Made by a program: the position numbers and the translations under genes | Notes under the pieces: generated by a model | Database searches by the model: none | The model's input: the letters and a program-made list of their open reading frames with translations, nothing else | What the model was told of the DNA's origin: nothing | Assembly (NCBI GenBank): GCA_001001485.1 | Contig: LCKO01000005.1 | Span: 3,552-67,551 of the forward strand | Origin: Candidatus Collierbacteria bacterium GW2011_GWB2_45_17 | GTDB lineage: Bacteria; Patescibacteriota; Microgenomatia; UBA1400; MFAQ01 | Reading direction: 5' to 3' | Length of the DNA: 64,000 nt | Shown: positions 3,597 to 19,943 of the stretch, in pieces | How the letters are laid out: each line of letters opens with the position of its first letter | Position numbering within the stretch: the first letter of the stretch is position 1

Positions 3597-3896
3597 GTGC
3601 ATAAAGTCATAGTTACACCGGAAGAGGTCAAAAAGATTGCCAAGTTGGCTCATCTCAAACTTCAAGATAGCGAAGTAGAGCTCTTTGCTGGTCAATTTAC
3701 CGAAACGGTCGACGTCATTAATCAGTTAAACGAGATCGACACCTCAGAAGTGGCGGCCACCTACCAAGTCACAGGCCTCAGCAATATTACCCGCGAAGAC
3801 ATCGTCGATACAACTAGAATTCTTCCCCAAGAAACCGCATTGCGAGAGGTTATTCGAACTCACGAAGGTTTTTTTGTTGTTCCCCGCATCATATGA
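3597..3896 (+). CDS. gatC: Asp/Glu-tRNA amidotransferase subunit C
   Basis: About 99 aa, GTG start, typical GatC N-terminus (PEEVKKIAKLAHLKL...); overlaps the gatA start (ATGA). Confidence 0.75.
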   Translation: MHKVIVTPEEVKKIAKLAHLKLQDSEVELFAGQFTETVDVINQLNEIDTSEVAATYQVTGLSNITREDIVDTTRILPQETALREVIRTHEGFFVVPRII

Positions 3897-15171: not shown

Positions 15172-15308
15172 TTATAACAAAACTTCTAGTTATTGGCCCT
15201 GCCTGCCGGTTTACCCGCCGGTAGGCGGGTTCTCTCAACACATGGTTCAAATTAACAATCTCGCCATAAAATACCCACTGATTAAGAGAATATTTTACCA
15301 GTGGGTAT
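15172..15308 (+). repeat. 5' GC-rich structured module, copy A (shortened)
   Basis: Shares blocks with the copies at 16327 and 48716 (ttataacaaaa, agttattggc, gcctgccgg, a hairpin CCCGCCggtaGGCGGG, ctctcaacacatgg, cgccataaaata, a hairpin ATACCCACTG/CAGTGGGTAT, ttgagacagcat); ends at the start codon of the downstream gene. Confidence 0.7.
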
Positions 15309-16222
15309 TTGGTACTTGAGACAGCATATGACCTTACGGTCAAAGTGCCTCATACAACAATTCGTGCAATTAATTATCGGTTTATAATTAACAAACATAT
15401 GACTAAAGGTGAAAAACTCAAACATTTGCAAATGTACTTCAATCCCAACACTGTGGAATCATTTTCAAAACTAGAACAAAACGAAAAGAACTACATGGTT
15501 GCGGAAGCAGTAGATAGAATTATTATTAATGAGATAAAAGATATACCCAATCCCTTGATGGTGGCCGAACTAGGGGGAGGAGCTCATCCTGATAGATATG
15601 AGGCTCTCTTTAAAAATTGCTTCAAGAACCTAACGGTCATATCGATTGGATTGATGTTTCAGAATTGATGTTGGAGCAAGCCAAACGGTATTTGCGAGAG
15701 ACAAATCTGGAAGAACGTAACAAAGTAATTTCCTTTATTGAAATGGAAATATTGGACTATCTGAGTACCTTGGGTGACAACAGTCTTGACTTGGTTATTA
15801 TGAAGTATACTTTTGAACACATTGAGAATATTGATCAACTATTTTCATTACTTAGTCACAAACTTAAAAAAAATGGTAGGTTTGTTGCCACTCTGAGCAG
15901 TCTTAGTCCTCAACTAAAAAGTTCATCTACAAATGCACGATTTCTTTACAATGGTCAAGAATTTCCTCTAGATGAAACTAGAGAAATGACAGATGGTGAC
16001 ACTTTTACGATTCGTTTCTATAAACAATCCGGAAACCCCAGTGCGGGACATTTGGAAGGCGCAGAGACAACAAAATATTATCATTCAGAAAATAAGATGA
16101 AAGATCTTTCTCGGAAATACAACCTTGATATTCAGGTTGGTGATTGGAAAGAGATCGAAGGTGTTAGTCAAGGCAATCTCGAACAACTAAGCTTGGGAGT
16201 CTTGGTACTTAGAAAAAGATAA
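15309..16222 (+). pseudogene. Class I SAM-dependent methyltransferase interrupted by a 1-nt frameshift
   Basis: ORF 15309..15668 carries motif I (VAELGGGAHP); a second ORF starting at the track's TTG at 15617, in another frame, carries the post-I 'IDWIDVSELMLEQAK', motif II LDLVIMKYTFEHI and motif III KKNGRFV; the frames switch near 15630-15650. Confidence 0.5.
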
Positions 16223-16304
16223 ACAACTTACGGGAGAGTTAAAAAAGCCCTTCGCATCGCTCCGTGCGTGGGCGGGCGCACGGGCGATATCCCAGAAATC
16301 TGGG
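16218..16304 (+). repeat. 3' module: conserved GC hairpin (copy 1)
   Basis: gataaacaacttacgggagagttaaaaaagcccttcgcatcgctccgtgcgtgggcgggcgcacgggcgat is near-identical to 19483..19553; stem ATCGCTCCGTGCG/CGCACGGGCGAT; followed by the hairpin CCCAGAaatTCTGGG. Confidence 0.75.
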
Positions 16305-16326
16305 CGAAACTTCTTTGAGGTGAGGT

Positions 16327-16846
16327 GTTACAACGAAATTCGAACTTATTTTCGGGACCATTACTAGTTATTGGCTCACCGCTCGGCAAAATTGCCTCGC
16401 GGTTCGCCAACCCCGCCTGCCGCGGGGTATACCGTCGCGCGACACCACTGCCTGCCGGCAGGTCACCTCCAACTGCGGTTGTCAGTGAGCCATACGAACT
16501 CGGTATCCCGCCCTCGTCGTCAATGTGAGTTTCGATACTTCGAACCAAAGCAATCTCACTCCACTGACTCTCGGTCGGAATGAATTTCTCTACGAGCTAG
16601 CGCCAGCTATCGCTGTCGCATCTTTATGTTCGTCCGCCTAGGCGGACGAAGCTCTCAACATATGGCTCGAATTTCAATCTCGCCATAAAATACCCACAGA
16701 TAGGAAACCTATTTTATCAGTGGGTATTAAATCCTTGAGACAGCATTGGCCTATGGGCCAAGTGCTTGCTTCGCAGGCACAGATTCAAGATAGCGACTGG
16801 TTTATAATGTGCGTAAACAATAATAACAAACCCTTTCATTCTAACT
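16327..16846 (+). repeat. 5' GC-rich structured module, copy B (full length)
   Basis: About 520 nt, GC-rich, homologous to 48716..49239 in conserved blocks, with sequence-variable hairpins between them; abuts the ATG at 16847. Confidence 0.8.
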
Positions 16847-17518
16847 ATGAATATAGACGAATTAATAATTAAACTCTCAATAGGTGATAAGCAAGAAATA
16901 AAAGAGGCAATTTGTTATATTGAAAAATTACCCAAAATAAGCAAAGAGAGAGTTCCTTCTGAGTACAAAGAATTACTGTTTTGGGCATTTAGAAATTATA
17001 GTTGTGTAAAAAGCTCGGTGCACAAGGTTGCTATTCTCAAGGGACTCAAATCACCATTTATGTACCTAGGGGCAAGGTATTATGAAGAATGTTCGGAATT
17101 TTTACTTCAAACCATACAAAGTTCGGACGGCAATATCAGAGAGCAAACCTATCATGCAGTCAATTGGTTTCTGACAGATATTACACCAAATGAGTTGTCC
17201 AGAAGAAAGAAAGATTATGAAAGACAGAAGGGTTGGTTGGTTGACTTTGTCATCAGATTAAACCAAGTTGCCAAAGAACACAAAGTCGAAGCAAAGGGGC
17301 TGCTTTATCTGAACGAAATGAGACCTTGTCCGTACAAATCGATCCAAAAAATACTAAGAAGAATTCTTACTAGCGAATGGTATCTGGAGATTATTCACCT
17401 GGCAGGATACGTTGAGCACCCTCACACACTGAGATTTTTGAAGATGAAAGATATGATTTTTGGGAAATTACTCCGCTTCAACTCGAACTTCACGAAACGC
17501 AATTCACCATGGAGATAA
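16847..17518 (+). CDS. Hypothetical protein (all-alpha, 223 aa)
   Basis: Long ORF directly after module B; no recognisable motif. Confidence 0.5.
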   Translation: MNIDELIIKLSIGDKQEIKEAICYIEKLPKISKERVPSEYKELLFWAFRNYSCVKSSVHKVAILKGLKSPFMYLGARYYEECSEFLLQTIQSSDGNIREQTYHAVNWFLTDITPNELSRRKKDYERQKGWLVDFVIRLNQVAKEHKVEAKGLLYLNEMRPCPYKSIQKILRRILTSEWYLEIIHLAGYVEHPHTLRFLKMKDMIFGKLLRFNSNFTKRNSPWR

Positions 17519-17540
17519 GAAAGGGTATAAAATAATCCTG

Positions 17541-17729
17541 ATGGACGAGAAGAAAACTAAATTTTACCAGTCTTACGCGAACCTTCCTCTAGAACTGCGT
17601 TCAGAGATATGCATCGTCATTGACGGTGAGCCGATAACATGGAATATAGCAAAGTTCGAGCTAGATAATGGTACAACCAAAGGACTTGAGATTCTTCAAA
17701 AATTATTTGATCTAAACATTCTAAAATGA
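17541..17729 (+). CDS. Hypothetical small protein (about 62 aa)
   Basis: Track ORF 17460..17729 overlaps the upstream gene; the internal ATG at 17541 (MDEKKTKF) is the more likely start. Confidence 0.35.
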   Translation: MDEKKTKFYQSYANLPLELRSEICIVIDGEPITWNIAKFELDNGTTKGLEILQKLFDLNILK

Positions 17730-17959
17730 CGCAAAAAATAACTGATGATGAAATAAGGAGCTTGGTTATCGAAAGACTCAAGTCTATCTCGGATGAATCA
17801 AGCTTGATGATTGGTGGCGATAAAAAACTTTCAAAGTCAGACATGATAAAAAGTGTCCAAAATGGTGACGATACGGGAAAAAAAATCATCGATATGCAAA
17901 TGACATATCTGAGAGATCTGGCGAGTGGAAAATTGATGGAAAATATAATGTCACTTTAA
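17726..17959 (+). CDS. Hypothetical small protein (77 aa)
   Basis: ATGA overlap with the upstream ORF; co-oriented, tightly packed operon. Confidence 0.4.
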   Translation: MTQKITDDEIRSLVIERLKSISDESSLMIGGDKKLSKSDMIKSVQNGDDTGKKIIDMQMTYLRDLASGKLMENIMSL

Positions 17960-17963
17960 AATT

Positions 17964-18605
17964 ATGGCCGGAATTATTATCACTCGGCCAAACCACGATC
18001 AAATTACCACCTATATTTCTTTATGGTCAGAGGCAGTGATTTTGTTCGCCAAAACAAAAGGGCACTCCATATTCGATTTGTTTAGCAAGAAAGCAGATCG
18101 AAAGTCGTTAGAACAATATCTTACAACCAACAATCTAAGTTTTTTATTTCTGAACGGACACGGATCTTCAGATGAAATTTGTGGGTACAACGATGAAGTC
18201 TTACTCGACGATGAAACCCAACCCACTCTCATTCTAGGTTTAATAATATACGCCAGAAGTTGTAATGCCGGTGAAAATCTAGGTCAGATATTAGTTACCA
18301 AGGGAGTCAAAGCTTTTATCGGTTACACAAAGTCTTTTTCTTTTGCTACTAGTAATAAATTTGTCTTCAGACCCAAAGAAGACCCACTAGCTAGATTATT
18401 TCTAGAACCCTCAAATCTTGTGGCAACCACTATCATCAAAGGGAACACTGTCCAAGAAGCCCACCAAAGGTCAGTATTGGAGATGAGAAAGACGCTTTCC
18501 GAAATGATTCTGTCCAATATTCCAAATAAAAAGGATTACGCATTTGCGCTTTACAACAACATGCTTGGTCAGACTGTAATTGGGGACGGGCAGGCCAAGA
18601 TATAA
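17964..18605 (+). CDS. Caspase-like clan CD cysteine peptidase (C14/CHAT-like core)
   Basis: His block 'FLFLNGHGSSDE' and Cys block 'LIIYARSCNAGE' lie 48 residues apart, each after a hydrophobic beta-strand; an N-terminal hydrophobic strand precedes them. Confidence 0.5.
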   Translation: MAGIIITRPNHDQITTYISLWSEAVILFAKTKGHSIFDLFSKKADRKSLEQYLTTNNLSFLFLNGHGSSDEICGYNDEVLLDDETQPTLILGLIIYARSCNAGENLGQILVTKGVKAFIGYTKSFSFATSNKFVFRPKEDPLARLFLEPSNLVATTIIKGNTVQEAHQRSVLEMRKTLSEMILSNIPNKKDYAFALYNNMLGQTVIGDGQAKI

Positions 18606-18611
18606 GACAGT

Positions 18612-19397
18612 ATGGATTTAATTGCAGATATTAAAGATGTAGTATTTTTCCAAGATTTCTTGGCATTTTTAAGGTATCTTGAAAGACAACCAATTTCCAA
18701 AACAGTGAAGGGTAACATATCCAGAAAAGACATTGTTTCTTTGGCTGACACAATGAAGTGTATTAAAGATAGAATTGCTGAATATTCTAAATATGACTGG
18801 AAAATAGTCGGCGAATGGCAGTTAAAGGATATCGACAAAATCAAGAAAATAGCCGAGGTAATGTTTTTGACCTACAACAGAAAGGAAAAATTGCTTTTAT
18901 CAAAAAACGGCAGAGGTTACATTAACCATAATGATAGGTTGATTCAGTACAAAGAGATGGTCCTTCACTATTTTGAGAGATTGAGTTGGGACTATTTTCA
19001 TCCAAGCATGGATACAAGGAACAGTATTCCATTTTTGGATGTTCTCCAAGCAAGTCAAAATATTTTGTGGCGAATATTTTTATCAAACGGAACAAAATGG
19101 ATTGAGTTCAAACAATTTCAAGAATCGCTAATAAACAACTTTTGTATAGATGATTGTATCGATTCAGAGGATACTTACAATGGAGCATATCAGGCGGATA
19201 TAGAACACGGATTTCTTCGTCCTCTACTTGAGTTTGGCTGTATTGATACTGAGACTGAAGTAATTTCGCAACGTTTAGAATTTACTAGAATAACAAAATT
19301 TCGACCTACAAATCTTGGTTTGTATATTTTTAGAGAAGAAGTAGAGAATTCTCTCTACACAGGTACTTGTCCCATCAGAGATTTGTGGAAAAAATAA
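18612..19397 (+). CDS. Hypothetical protein (261 aa)
   Basis: Last gene of the 5-gene island; no recognisable motif. Confidence 0.5.
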   Translation: MDLIADIKDVVFFQDFLAFLRYLERQPISKTVKGNISRKDIVSLADTMKCIKDRIAEYSKYDWKIVGEWQLKDIDKIKKIAEVMFLTYNRKEKLLLSKNGRGYINHNDRLIQYKEMVLHYFERLSWDYFHPSMDTRNSIPFLDVLQASQNILWRIFLSNGTKWIEFKQFQESLINNFCIDDCIDSEDTYNGAYQADIEHGFLRPLLEFGCIDTETEVISQRLEFTRITKFRPTNLGLYIFREEVENSLYTGTCPIRDLWKK

Positions 19398-19482
19398 GGC
19401 GCAAAAAGTCGCGCGACCGGATACCACTGGCGAAGATTTGTGAATCTTCGCTAAAAACATCGGCTCGAACTACTTTTTGAAA

Positions 19483-19569
19483 GATAAACAACTTACTGGA
19501 GAATTAAAAAAGCCCTTCGCATCGCTCCGTGCGTGAGCGGGCGCACGGGCGATGGGTCAGAGTACTGAC
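19483..19569 (+). repeat. 3' module: conserved GC hairpin (copy 2)
   Basis: gataaacaacttactggagaattaaaaaagcccttcgcatcgctccgtgcgtgagcgggcgcacgggcgat, then the hairpin GTCAGagtaCTGAC and a T-run; lies between the island and the convergent tRNA-Glu. Confidence 0.75.
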
Positions 19570-19585
19570 GATTTTTTCTTAAAGG

Positions 19586-19658
19586 TGACCCCGGGCGGAT
19601 TCGAACCGCCGATATTCAGGATGAAAACCTGACGTCCTAACCACTAGACGACGGGGCC
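19586..19658 (-). tRNA. tRNA-Glu(TTC)
   Basis: Manual fold: acceptor GGCCCCG/CGGGGTC, anticodon loop TTTTCAT, T-loop TTCGAAT; coordinates +/-2. Confidence 0.85.
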
Positions 19659-19663
19659 GTGAG

Positions 19664-19737
19664 TGGGTCAGCCGGGACTCGAACCCGGGACACCCTGCTT
19701 AAAAGGCAGGTGCTCTAACCGACTGAGCTACTGACCC
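19664..19737 (-). tRNA. tRNA-Lys(TTT)
   Basis: Acceptor GGGTCAG/CTGACCC, anticodon loop CTTTTAA, T-loop TTCGAGT. Confidence 0.85.
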
Positions 19738-19943
19738 ATCTTAATATTTTAATCGAACTCGCGACACTTCCGCAAAGCGGAATGCTCTAACCTCCGCCAG
19801 AGGCGGATCAGCCTTTGGCTAAGACTGAAGCTATCCTGTCCCGATCTATCGGGATGACCCAACAAACCACGCTCATATTTTATCATTTTCTCTGGCTAAA
19901 ATAAAACCTCAATCGAACAGTTCTGGTTGTGTAGAATGTAGAT

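Follow-up and report, generated by a model that had tools for sequence, protein, structure and literature searches.

Within a 64,000-nucleotide stretch of a Candidatus Collierbacteria genome (candidate phyla radiation, CPR; Microgenomates), referred to here as the window, five open reading frames (ORFs) lie tightly packed on the plus strand, just upstream of a tRNA-Glu and a tRNA-Lys gene on the minus strand (Table 1). They encode proteins of 223, 62, 77, 213 and 261 amino acids (aa), with intergenic distances of 22, −4, 4 and 6 nucleotides (nt) in that order, and the three central ORFs are designated genes A, B and C. The layout of five co-oriented ORFs and their adjacency to the tRNA genes agreed with the original prediction, a reading of the DNA made without database searches, in which the five genes were proposed to form an island carrying a defence module with C as a caspase-like (clan CD) peptidase. 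Gene A was listed by the ORF finder as an 89-aa ORF with a TTG start (17460–17729), but is taken to begin at ATG 17541 on account of its homologues and of the purine-rich site AAGAAAGGG which precedes this ATG. The middle three genes are real, as hundreds of homologues were found for each of A, B and C, and the C protein is 100% identical to UX08_C0002G0012 of Collierbacteria GW2011_GWB1_45. As had been stated, no function could be recognised for the five proteins: scans against Pfam, NCBIfam, PHROGs and PADLOC gave no meaningful match, and no family of PADLOC-DB 2.0 was matched by any of them at E ≤ 1, with the result that the comparison with defence models put forward as a check returned nothing in favour of the proposed module.

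Table 1. Features of the locus in the window and of related loci (locus numbers precede coordinates outside the window).
Feature	Location	Strand	Remarks
Left 83-nt direct repeat	16206..16288	+	Remnant of a large serine recombinase gene (final ~27 codons)
223-aa ORF	16847..17518	+	From the ORF listing; basic, isoelectric point (pI) 9.5; outside the conserved triplet, its family being an occasional neighbour of the triplet
Gene A, 62 aa	17541..17729	+	First gene of the triplet; acidic (pI 4.9), soluble
Gene B, 77 aa	17726..17959	+	Second gene of the triplet; acidic (pI 5.3), soluble; 4-nt overlap with A
Gene C, 213 aa	17964..18605	+	Third gene of the triplet; predicted stand-alone clan CD (caspase-hemoglobinase fold) cysteine peptidase
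261-aa ORF	18612..19397	+	Orphan among the loci examined
Recombinase 3′ relic	19399..19553	+	~50 codons with two in-frame stops; holds the right repeat copy (19471–19553)
tRNA-Glu(TTC) and tRNA-Lys(TTT)	19584..19737	-	ARAGORN and Rfam; tRNA-Glu 19584–19658, tRNA-Lys 19663–19737
~140-aa family beside the triplet	L047:8769-10076; L001:6663-7079; L010:3986-4411; L015:8662-9078; L002:5015-5458		Fused to the 223-aa homologue in L047
Fic/SoFic genes near the triplet	L001:398-1468; L025; L030; L047; L053; L058; L071; L073; L082		

To place these genes among their relatives, one genome per GTDB species was scanned, which returned 80 loci, and 90 loci in total were searched with each protein of the window. 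When all ORFs of these 90 loci were searched, A was found in 83 and B in 85. The order A-B-C on one strand was present in every locus with room upstream of C (approximately 85), usually with a 4-nt overlap at the junction of A and B, and the loci without A or B were contig-edge cases with the exception of L071, which has an N-terminally truncated C. Five distant homologues of C were also found to be immediately preceded by a gene of 61–67 aa and a gene of 77–85 aa within unrelated flanks. The distance matrices of A, B and C were correlated (r 0.63–0.74, Mantel p ≤ 0.001), and A and B co-diverge with C as its obligatory upstream partners.

Comparison of the DNA set the borders of the conserved unit. 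The window shows 74–75% identity to loci L015, L001 and L010 from position 17524 to approximately 18603, which corresponds to the triplet only. Within one Roizmanbacteria metagenome-assembled genome (MAG), L019:4151-5208 and L023:1650-2707 are 88.8% identical over 1058 bp, with the similarity running exactly from A to C between unrelated flanks; this pair reflects a genuine second copy, or else a MAG that mixes two organisms. The functional unit is the three genes A, B and C, a cassette of approximately 1.06 kb encoding 352 residues. Conservation of the gene neighbourhood, which had been expected of all five genes, was therefore seen for the middle three and not for the whole set, as only the 62-, 77- and 213-aa genes co-occur in the approximately 85 other loci.

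Among the 90 loci, the 223-aa protein had one direct homologue (E 9e-16): in L047 the gene just after C encodes a protein of 435 aa, and its N-terminal half is the match. The C-terminal half of this 435-aa protein belongs to an uncharacterised family of approximately 140 aa which abuts the triplet in several Collier- and Daviesbacteria loci. Either the 223-aa family or the ~140-aa family to which it is fused was found directly beside the triplet in six loci, the link of the 223-aa protein to the triplet being made through the fusion protein, and the 223-aa family is missing from more than 90% of the loci. For the 261-aa protein, neither the 90 loci (searched up to E 50) nor 26 related metagenome loci gave a homologue, and its exact sequence was found only in the same organism. 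In its nearest relatives within the Collierbacteria, the slot of this gene is held by one of 138–141 aa. Neither the 223- nor the 261-aa protein gave a match in Pfam, PADLOC, the PDB or phage proteins; both are without a hydrophobic segment and neither is conserved beside the protease elsewhere. The ~140-aa family was also considered as an IS200-like HUH transposase from a resemblance noted by eye, and this was rejected, with the 'HIH' motif not conserved and the Pfam matches weak (Rep_N 0.04, Y1_Tnp 0.02).

These results bear on the proposal of a five-gene defence or cell-death system, in which the protease would activate a pore-forming or toxic effector of 223 or 261 aa in the manner of a gasdermin. 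The gaps of no more than 22 nt make co-transcription of the five genes probable in this genome, and the recurrence of the 223-aa and fused ~140-aa families in six loci would also suit such a system. It is nevertheless considered very improbable, given that no other triplet has a relative of the 261-aa protein nearby, that the 223-aa family is so rarely present, that neither protein gave a gasdermin match, and that DNA homology to the closest relatives ends at the triplet borders. As a general architecture the five-gene model is largely refuted, and neither outer protein can be kept as a member of the conserved module. The slot beside the triplet is a facultative accessory position in a few lineages, and the 223- and 261-aa genes are variable, lineage-specific fellow cargo.

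The assignment of C to clan CD was upheld by the fold comparison, which could have overturned it. C was found to adopt an alpha/beta/alpha sandwich with caspase-hemoglobinase topology, with a dyad in which His precedes Cys and a hydrophobic strand leads up to each of them: NGH66G comes after strand 58–64 and ARSC100 after strand 94–98. The blocks FLFLNGHG and LIIYARSCNAG, on which the assignment had been based, are both present, with NGHG and the Cys invariant across the family, although the spacing of 48 residues given for them was wrong, the catalytic dyad being His66/Cys100 at a distance of 34 residues. Residue conservation was assessed over 74 complete loci, 49 bacterial and 25 archaeal. 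T7, P9, N64, H66, G67, G74, C100, G107, G120, Y121 and D140 were invariant in all 74, and position 12 was Asp or Glu in every one (D12 in the window). Gingipains and CHAT proteases were the closest fold matches, with MALT1, glycosylphosphatidylinositol (GPI) transamidase, caspases and clostripain ranking lower, and identity to the gingipains was 14–15%. Sequence and profile searches of the PDB with C gave no relatives.

A word-indexed search with C returned 308 homologues, nearly all of 205–220 aa. An exhaustive profile search over 1.84 billion cluster representatives gave 346 at E ≤ 1e-30 and 1098 at E ≤ 1e-10, these counts being of clusters at 50% identity, and the best 150 representatives were of 156–246 aa (mostly 205–220) and without a fused domain. 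No Pfam match was obtained for C at E ≤ 1, including Peptidase_C25, Peptidase_C14 and CHAT. PF01364 (Peptidase_C25) was matched by four of 36 relatives of C, with a best E of 7.2e-7, and a precomputed match to it was present in one of the 120 homologues listed. As C itself matched none of these families and so few of its relatives touch Peptidase_C25, C is filed as a new, minimal family within clan CD, lying outside Peptidase_C25, C14 and CHAT as judged by sequence. The secreted multidomain layout of the gingipains (signal peptide, prodomain, immunoglobulin (Ig)-like domain and C-terminal sorting domain) was not found in C. The maximum hydropathy over 19 residues is 1.04, with no hydrophobic segment, and the sequence opens directly with beta-strand 1; for these reasons C is predicted to be cytoplasmic. 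The structural comparison indicates that C is an intact, stand-alone cysteine peptidase of clan CD with predicted activity.

The universal acidic residues at positions 12 and 140 suggest, by analogy, that C may cut after Arg or Lys. A basic, Asp-specific S1 pocket formed by R8 and R98 was also considered and rejected, as these residues are invariant only in the Microgenomates (R8 in 63 and R98 in 52 of the 74 loci) whereas the acidic residues at 12 and 140 are universal. The CPR cysteine protease CPR-C4 (PMC9108980) was likewise rejected as a member of the same family, being vasohibin-like with its Cys61 placed before His93.

Proteins A and B are both soluble and acidic, whereas the pI of C is near neutral. 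R20, W34 and E40 are invariant in A, as are R17, G30 and G51 in B. In Pfam scans of the individual members, a weak, sub-threshold match to DUF7713 was seen in 18 of 62 members of A (best E 0.0035), a family on which no paper was found in a literature search, and nothing consistent was seen for B. Searches of the PDB by sequence gave no solved relative of either protein, and the predicted structure of B (predicted local distance difference test score, pLDDT, 88) matched no known fold. At the level of sequence and fold, neither A nor B showed a DNA-binding domain of the ribbon-helix-helix (RHH), helix-turn-helix (HTH) or AbrB type.

It was observed that MAFFT superposed the A family on the B family column by column on two occasions, with a common pattern of a helix, 'LP', a strand, G-x-x-[FY]-T-[WK] and a helix ending in G-K-K-I. 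Comparison of the two with hhalign gave P 0.004–0.006 over 32–33 columns, a score which was reached by two of 150 column-shuffled controls. This is suggestive only, but A and B may be old paralogues, which would fit with the single small gene present in an archaeal virus variant described below. A search with a concatenated A+B profile gave 286 stand-alone small proteins and one A-B fusion (P0295, 162 aa, L095 5001–5489). This fusion, the only one found, was rejected as Rosetta-stone evidence, since it lies on a single long-read contig of 2.86x coverage, has a frameshift-like linker and is followed by no intact C. A fragment of a Cas12a (Cpf1) gene lies approximately 5 kb from it, at L095 10369–10489.

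One possible reading of the small proteins is that they are substrates of C, either cleaved by it or joined by it as a transpeptidase (as with legumain-type ligases, GPI transamidase and PorU), giving mature peptides or a covalent product. This is thought improbable. A and B are folded domains conserved over their full length, as the confidence of the B model indicates, and not a leader with a variable core; no export or modification genes co-occur with the triplet; and all three proteins are predicted to be cytoplasmic.

The description of the locus as an island was borne out by the region of the five genes, which has the look of acquired DNA, as it is low in GC (0.37–0.38 at 17–19 kb of the window against approximately 0.44 in the flanks), adjacent to tRNA genes and bracketed by an 83-nt direct repeat derived from the 3′ end of a serine recombinase gene. 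The two copies of the repeat (Table 1) are 92% identical and occur nowhere else in the 64 kb. The left copy abuts the stop codon of an upstream methyltransferase gene. Its translation, YLEKDKQLTGELKKPFASLRAWAGARAI, corresponds to the C-terminal end of a recombinase encoded in L115, as does the translation of window 19399–19553; the gene at L115:3595-5145 is intact and encodes a large serine recombinase of 517 aa (Pfam Resolvase, Recombinase and Zn_ribbon_recom). Such an intact gene adjoins tRNA-Glu, tRNA-Lys and RuvC in related contigs of Collierbacteria, at the position where the window has the five genes. The triplet of L015 also adjoins a tRNA-Glu gene, with anticodon CTC. On the basis of the repeat, the recombinase relics and the tRNA-Glu gene of L015, the triplet in Collierbacteria rides a decayed integrative element at tRNA-Glu, and the tRNA-Glu/tRNA-Lys site is an integration hot spot with decayed integrase remnants.

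Several other features were noted around this site. A GC-rich non-coding region of approximately 500 nt (window 16289–16784) is 72–81% conserved in many related contigs. Its homologues L015:7020-7526 (homologous to window 16316–16779) and L001:5234-5393 lie directly upstream of the triplet, and the region is also found beside the recombinase in contigs without the triplet. No Rfam family was matched by it. Its last ~120 nt resemble window 15231–15350, and a degenerate 3′ half of a tRNA was seen by eye at 16321–16390. An 18-nt inverted repeat (16426–16443 and 19408–19425, GGTATACCGTCGCGCGAC and GTCGCGCGACCGGATACC, 89% complementary) connects the GC-rich region with the recombinase relic. It should also be noted that approximately 110 nt between tRNA-Lys and ruvC (window ~19745–19855) are missing in L091:4121-4133, from a second assembly of the same organism (GCA_000997125.1).

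Going by record labels, the carriers of the triplet within the CPR are Microgenomates (Collier-, Davies-, Roizman-, Gottesman-, Levy- and Shapirobacteria) and Parcubacteria (Uhr-, Nomura-, Magasanik-, Andersen-, Lipton- and Gribaldobacteria and Paceibacterota), with archaeal carriers of DPANN type comprising Woese-, Pace-, Nano-, Aenigm- and Altiarchaeota, Parvarchaeum and Nanohalarchaeota. Triplets from co-assembly MAGs labelled 'uncultured Gammaproteobacteria', 'Pseudomonadales' or 'Methanosarcinales' (L010, L013, L018, L021, L024, L030, L031, L064, L088 and others) nest in the CPR and DPANN clades, and these labels look like unreliable placeholders; the L010 protein, for example, shares 72% identity with that of Collierbacteria. 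A neighbour-joining tree of C placed the archaeal and bacterial groups in an interleaved order, with at least three archaeal and at least two bacterial clusters and one archaeal sequence inside a bacterial group. The tree is crude, but this interleaving implies transfer between the domains. The distribution across the CPR and DPANN is direct evidence of gene exchange between both radiations, and the cassette is a discrete unit which spreads horizontally among CPR bacteria and DPANN archaea.

The nearest neighbours of the triplet were varied: 149 Pfam families were represented in 145 proteins, and none of these families occurred in more than three. Mobile, toxin-antitoxin (TA) or defence functions account for a minority, namely Fic/SoFic, MNT-type nucleotidyltransferases, AbiEi, restriction-modification enzymes of type ISP/IIG, RadC, Bro-N and RhuM. 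Fic/SoFic genes were found at variable positions within approximately 5 kb of the triplet in nine of ~85 loci (Table 1), counts which have no enrichment baseline. Among phage genomes, INPHARED gave one distant homologue of C at 3705–4648 of L122 (BK063666.1), a circular archaeal virus genome of 38.8 kb whose host is given as Methanofastidiosa. This homologue has the GHG and SC motifs and a C-terminal hydrophobic tail. A gene of 66 aa lies 5′ of it with a 4-nt overlap; its product is matched by the profile of B and, less strongly, by that of A. This pair represents a distant two-gene variant of the cassette.

The layout of the triplet is in the style of a TA system, with a compact coupled operon, small upstream partners and a downstream predicted effector which have moved as a unit. 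It is proposed, with a probability of roughly 0.4, that the triplet is a mobile, conflict-type cassette resembling a TA system, with C held latent by its two partners until it is triggered. The small proteins, possibly joined in a heterodimer, would bind C and keep it latent or direct it, acting as a prodomain or pseudosubstrate supplied in trans, comparable to the gingipain prodomain for RgpB or securin for separase, and the whole would be akin to a two-subunit antitoxin with a protease toxin. The sole invariant Arg of each small protein (R20 of A and R17 of B) could in either case fill the S1 pocket. Infection, stress or the disappearance of the labile partners, for instance, would then free C, which might cleave cellular or invader proteins after basic residues. 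The cassette would accordingly be a selfish or conflict module, of toxin-antitoxin or abortive-infection style, and not part of core metabolism, and in this window it is the cargo of the decayed integrative element at tRNA-Glu. A role in defence or programmed cell death is hypothesised from the mobility and patchy distribution of the cassette, which matched no known system.

A number of points weigh against this proposal. Bacterial and archaeal members share a mean identity of 41% (A), 33% (B) and 35% (C) and are uniform in length, which is unusually conserved for a conflict system, and conservation of this strength would be compatible with a conserved role in the cell as well. A, B and C are not tied to a known TA or defence system by any model of PADLOC, Pfam or NCBIfam. 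Searches of IMG/VR viral contigs and PLSDB plasmids did not return the canonical triplet, and defence and mobile genes are only a minority of its neighbours, in counts that lack an enrichment baseline. The binding or inhibition of C by A and B is something that we infer only, and the fusion P0295 is probably a sequencing indel artefact. The suggested cleavage after Arg or Lys depends on a presumed correspondence of D12 and D140 to the S1 aspartates of gingipains and metacaspases.

Several of these points would be accounted for by the main rival reading, a housekeeping processing module, in which C would be an intracellular protease of maturation or quality control and A and B its adaptors, activators or substrate-presenting chaperones, with no toxic or defensive role. 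The strong and uniform conservation of the three proteins across two domains in fixed lengths and order, the usual presence of one copy of the triplet per contig, the lack of a match to known defence models or of a canonical triplet on the viral contigs and plasmids searched, and the many neighbours which are ordinary housekeeping genes all count in its favour. It is thought unlikely, however, as the distribution appears patchy and 346–1098 clusters at 50% identity seems a small number for the diversity of the lineages. The genomic position of the triplet is also not conserved, with a discrete duplicated unit in one MAG, and in the window it is low-GC cargo of an island with integrase relics, while bacterial and archaeal clades of C interleave.

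The preferred reading, of a latent protease in a TA-like cassette, can be compared with several known systems. Tripartite TA operons (such as omega-epsilon-zeta and paaR-paaA-parE) resemble the triplet in having three coupled genes with small acidic proteins upstream of a larger enzyme, and also in their patchy distribution, variable position, occasional second copies and Fic, MNT or AbiEi neighbours. They differ in that A and B have no DNA-binding regulator domain (RHH or HTH). We know of no TA family with a clan CD protease as its toxin. Separase and securin are eukaryotic, the protease being very large and securin disordered, whereas B is a folded mini-domain, and the partners are not homologous. 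The orthocaspases and metacaspases (C14) differ from C, which has no Pfam Peptidase_C14 match, no p20/p10 linker architecture and no fused effector or sensor domain. Bacterial operons of gasdermin and protease also differ, as no gasdermin gene was found beside the triplet by Pfam or PADLOC.

The gingipains RgpB and Kgp (MEROPS C25, clan CD; complex of the RgpB prodomain and enzyme, PDB 4ief) are secreted multidomain proteins of more than 400 aa, with a prodomain in cis, Ig-like domains and a C-terminal domain for the type IX secretion system (T9SS). In comparison C, at 213 aa, is predicted to be cytoplasmic and is distant in sequence, and its putative regulators are two separate small proteins of unrelated fold. 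The CHAT proteases of immunity (SAVED-CHAT, PDB 8tl0; Csx29/TPR-CHAT of the type III-E Craspase) carry fused sensors (SAVED, TPR) and are encoded with components of CRISPR or of the cyclic oligonucleotide-based antiphage signalling system (CBASS), whereas C has no extra domain and no Pfam CHAT match, and its surroundings hold no conserved cyclase or cas gene.

No description of the triplet was found when the literature was searched for caspase-like or gingipain-like systems of the CPR or DPANN. What is known is the fold and chemistry of C, while its minimal stand-alone format, its two partners without a known fold and the distribution across the CPR and DPANN are new. A more far-reaching view, which is held only tentatively, is that a minimal caspase-fold enzyme of 213 aa may be under trans control by a heterodimer of paralogous mini-proteins of new fold, exchanged between the CPR and DPANN and occasionally viruses, and that it could be the first TA or abortive-infection module with a clan CD toxin, or a tool of episymbiosis.

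Proteases with the caspase fold act as central executioners when eukaryotic cells die and also in several recently discovered immune systems of bacteria, and the prokaryotic examples known to us are large, sensor-fused proteins. The CPR and DPANN are two radiations of ultra-small, mostly episymbiotic microbes, and here the catalytic domain stands alone, near the minimum size for the fold, and is invariably paired with two tiny proteins. If A and B are true regulators in trans, the 352 residues of the cassette would offer a very simple and tractable model of the way in which a caspase-like protease is kept latent and then set free, and a function would be given to three families of 'hypothetical protein' which are common in groundwater metagenomes.

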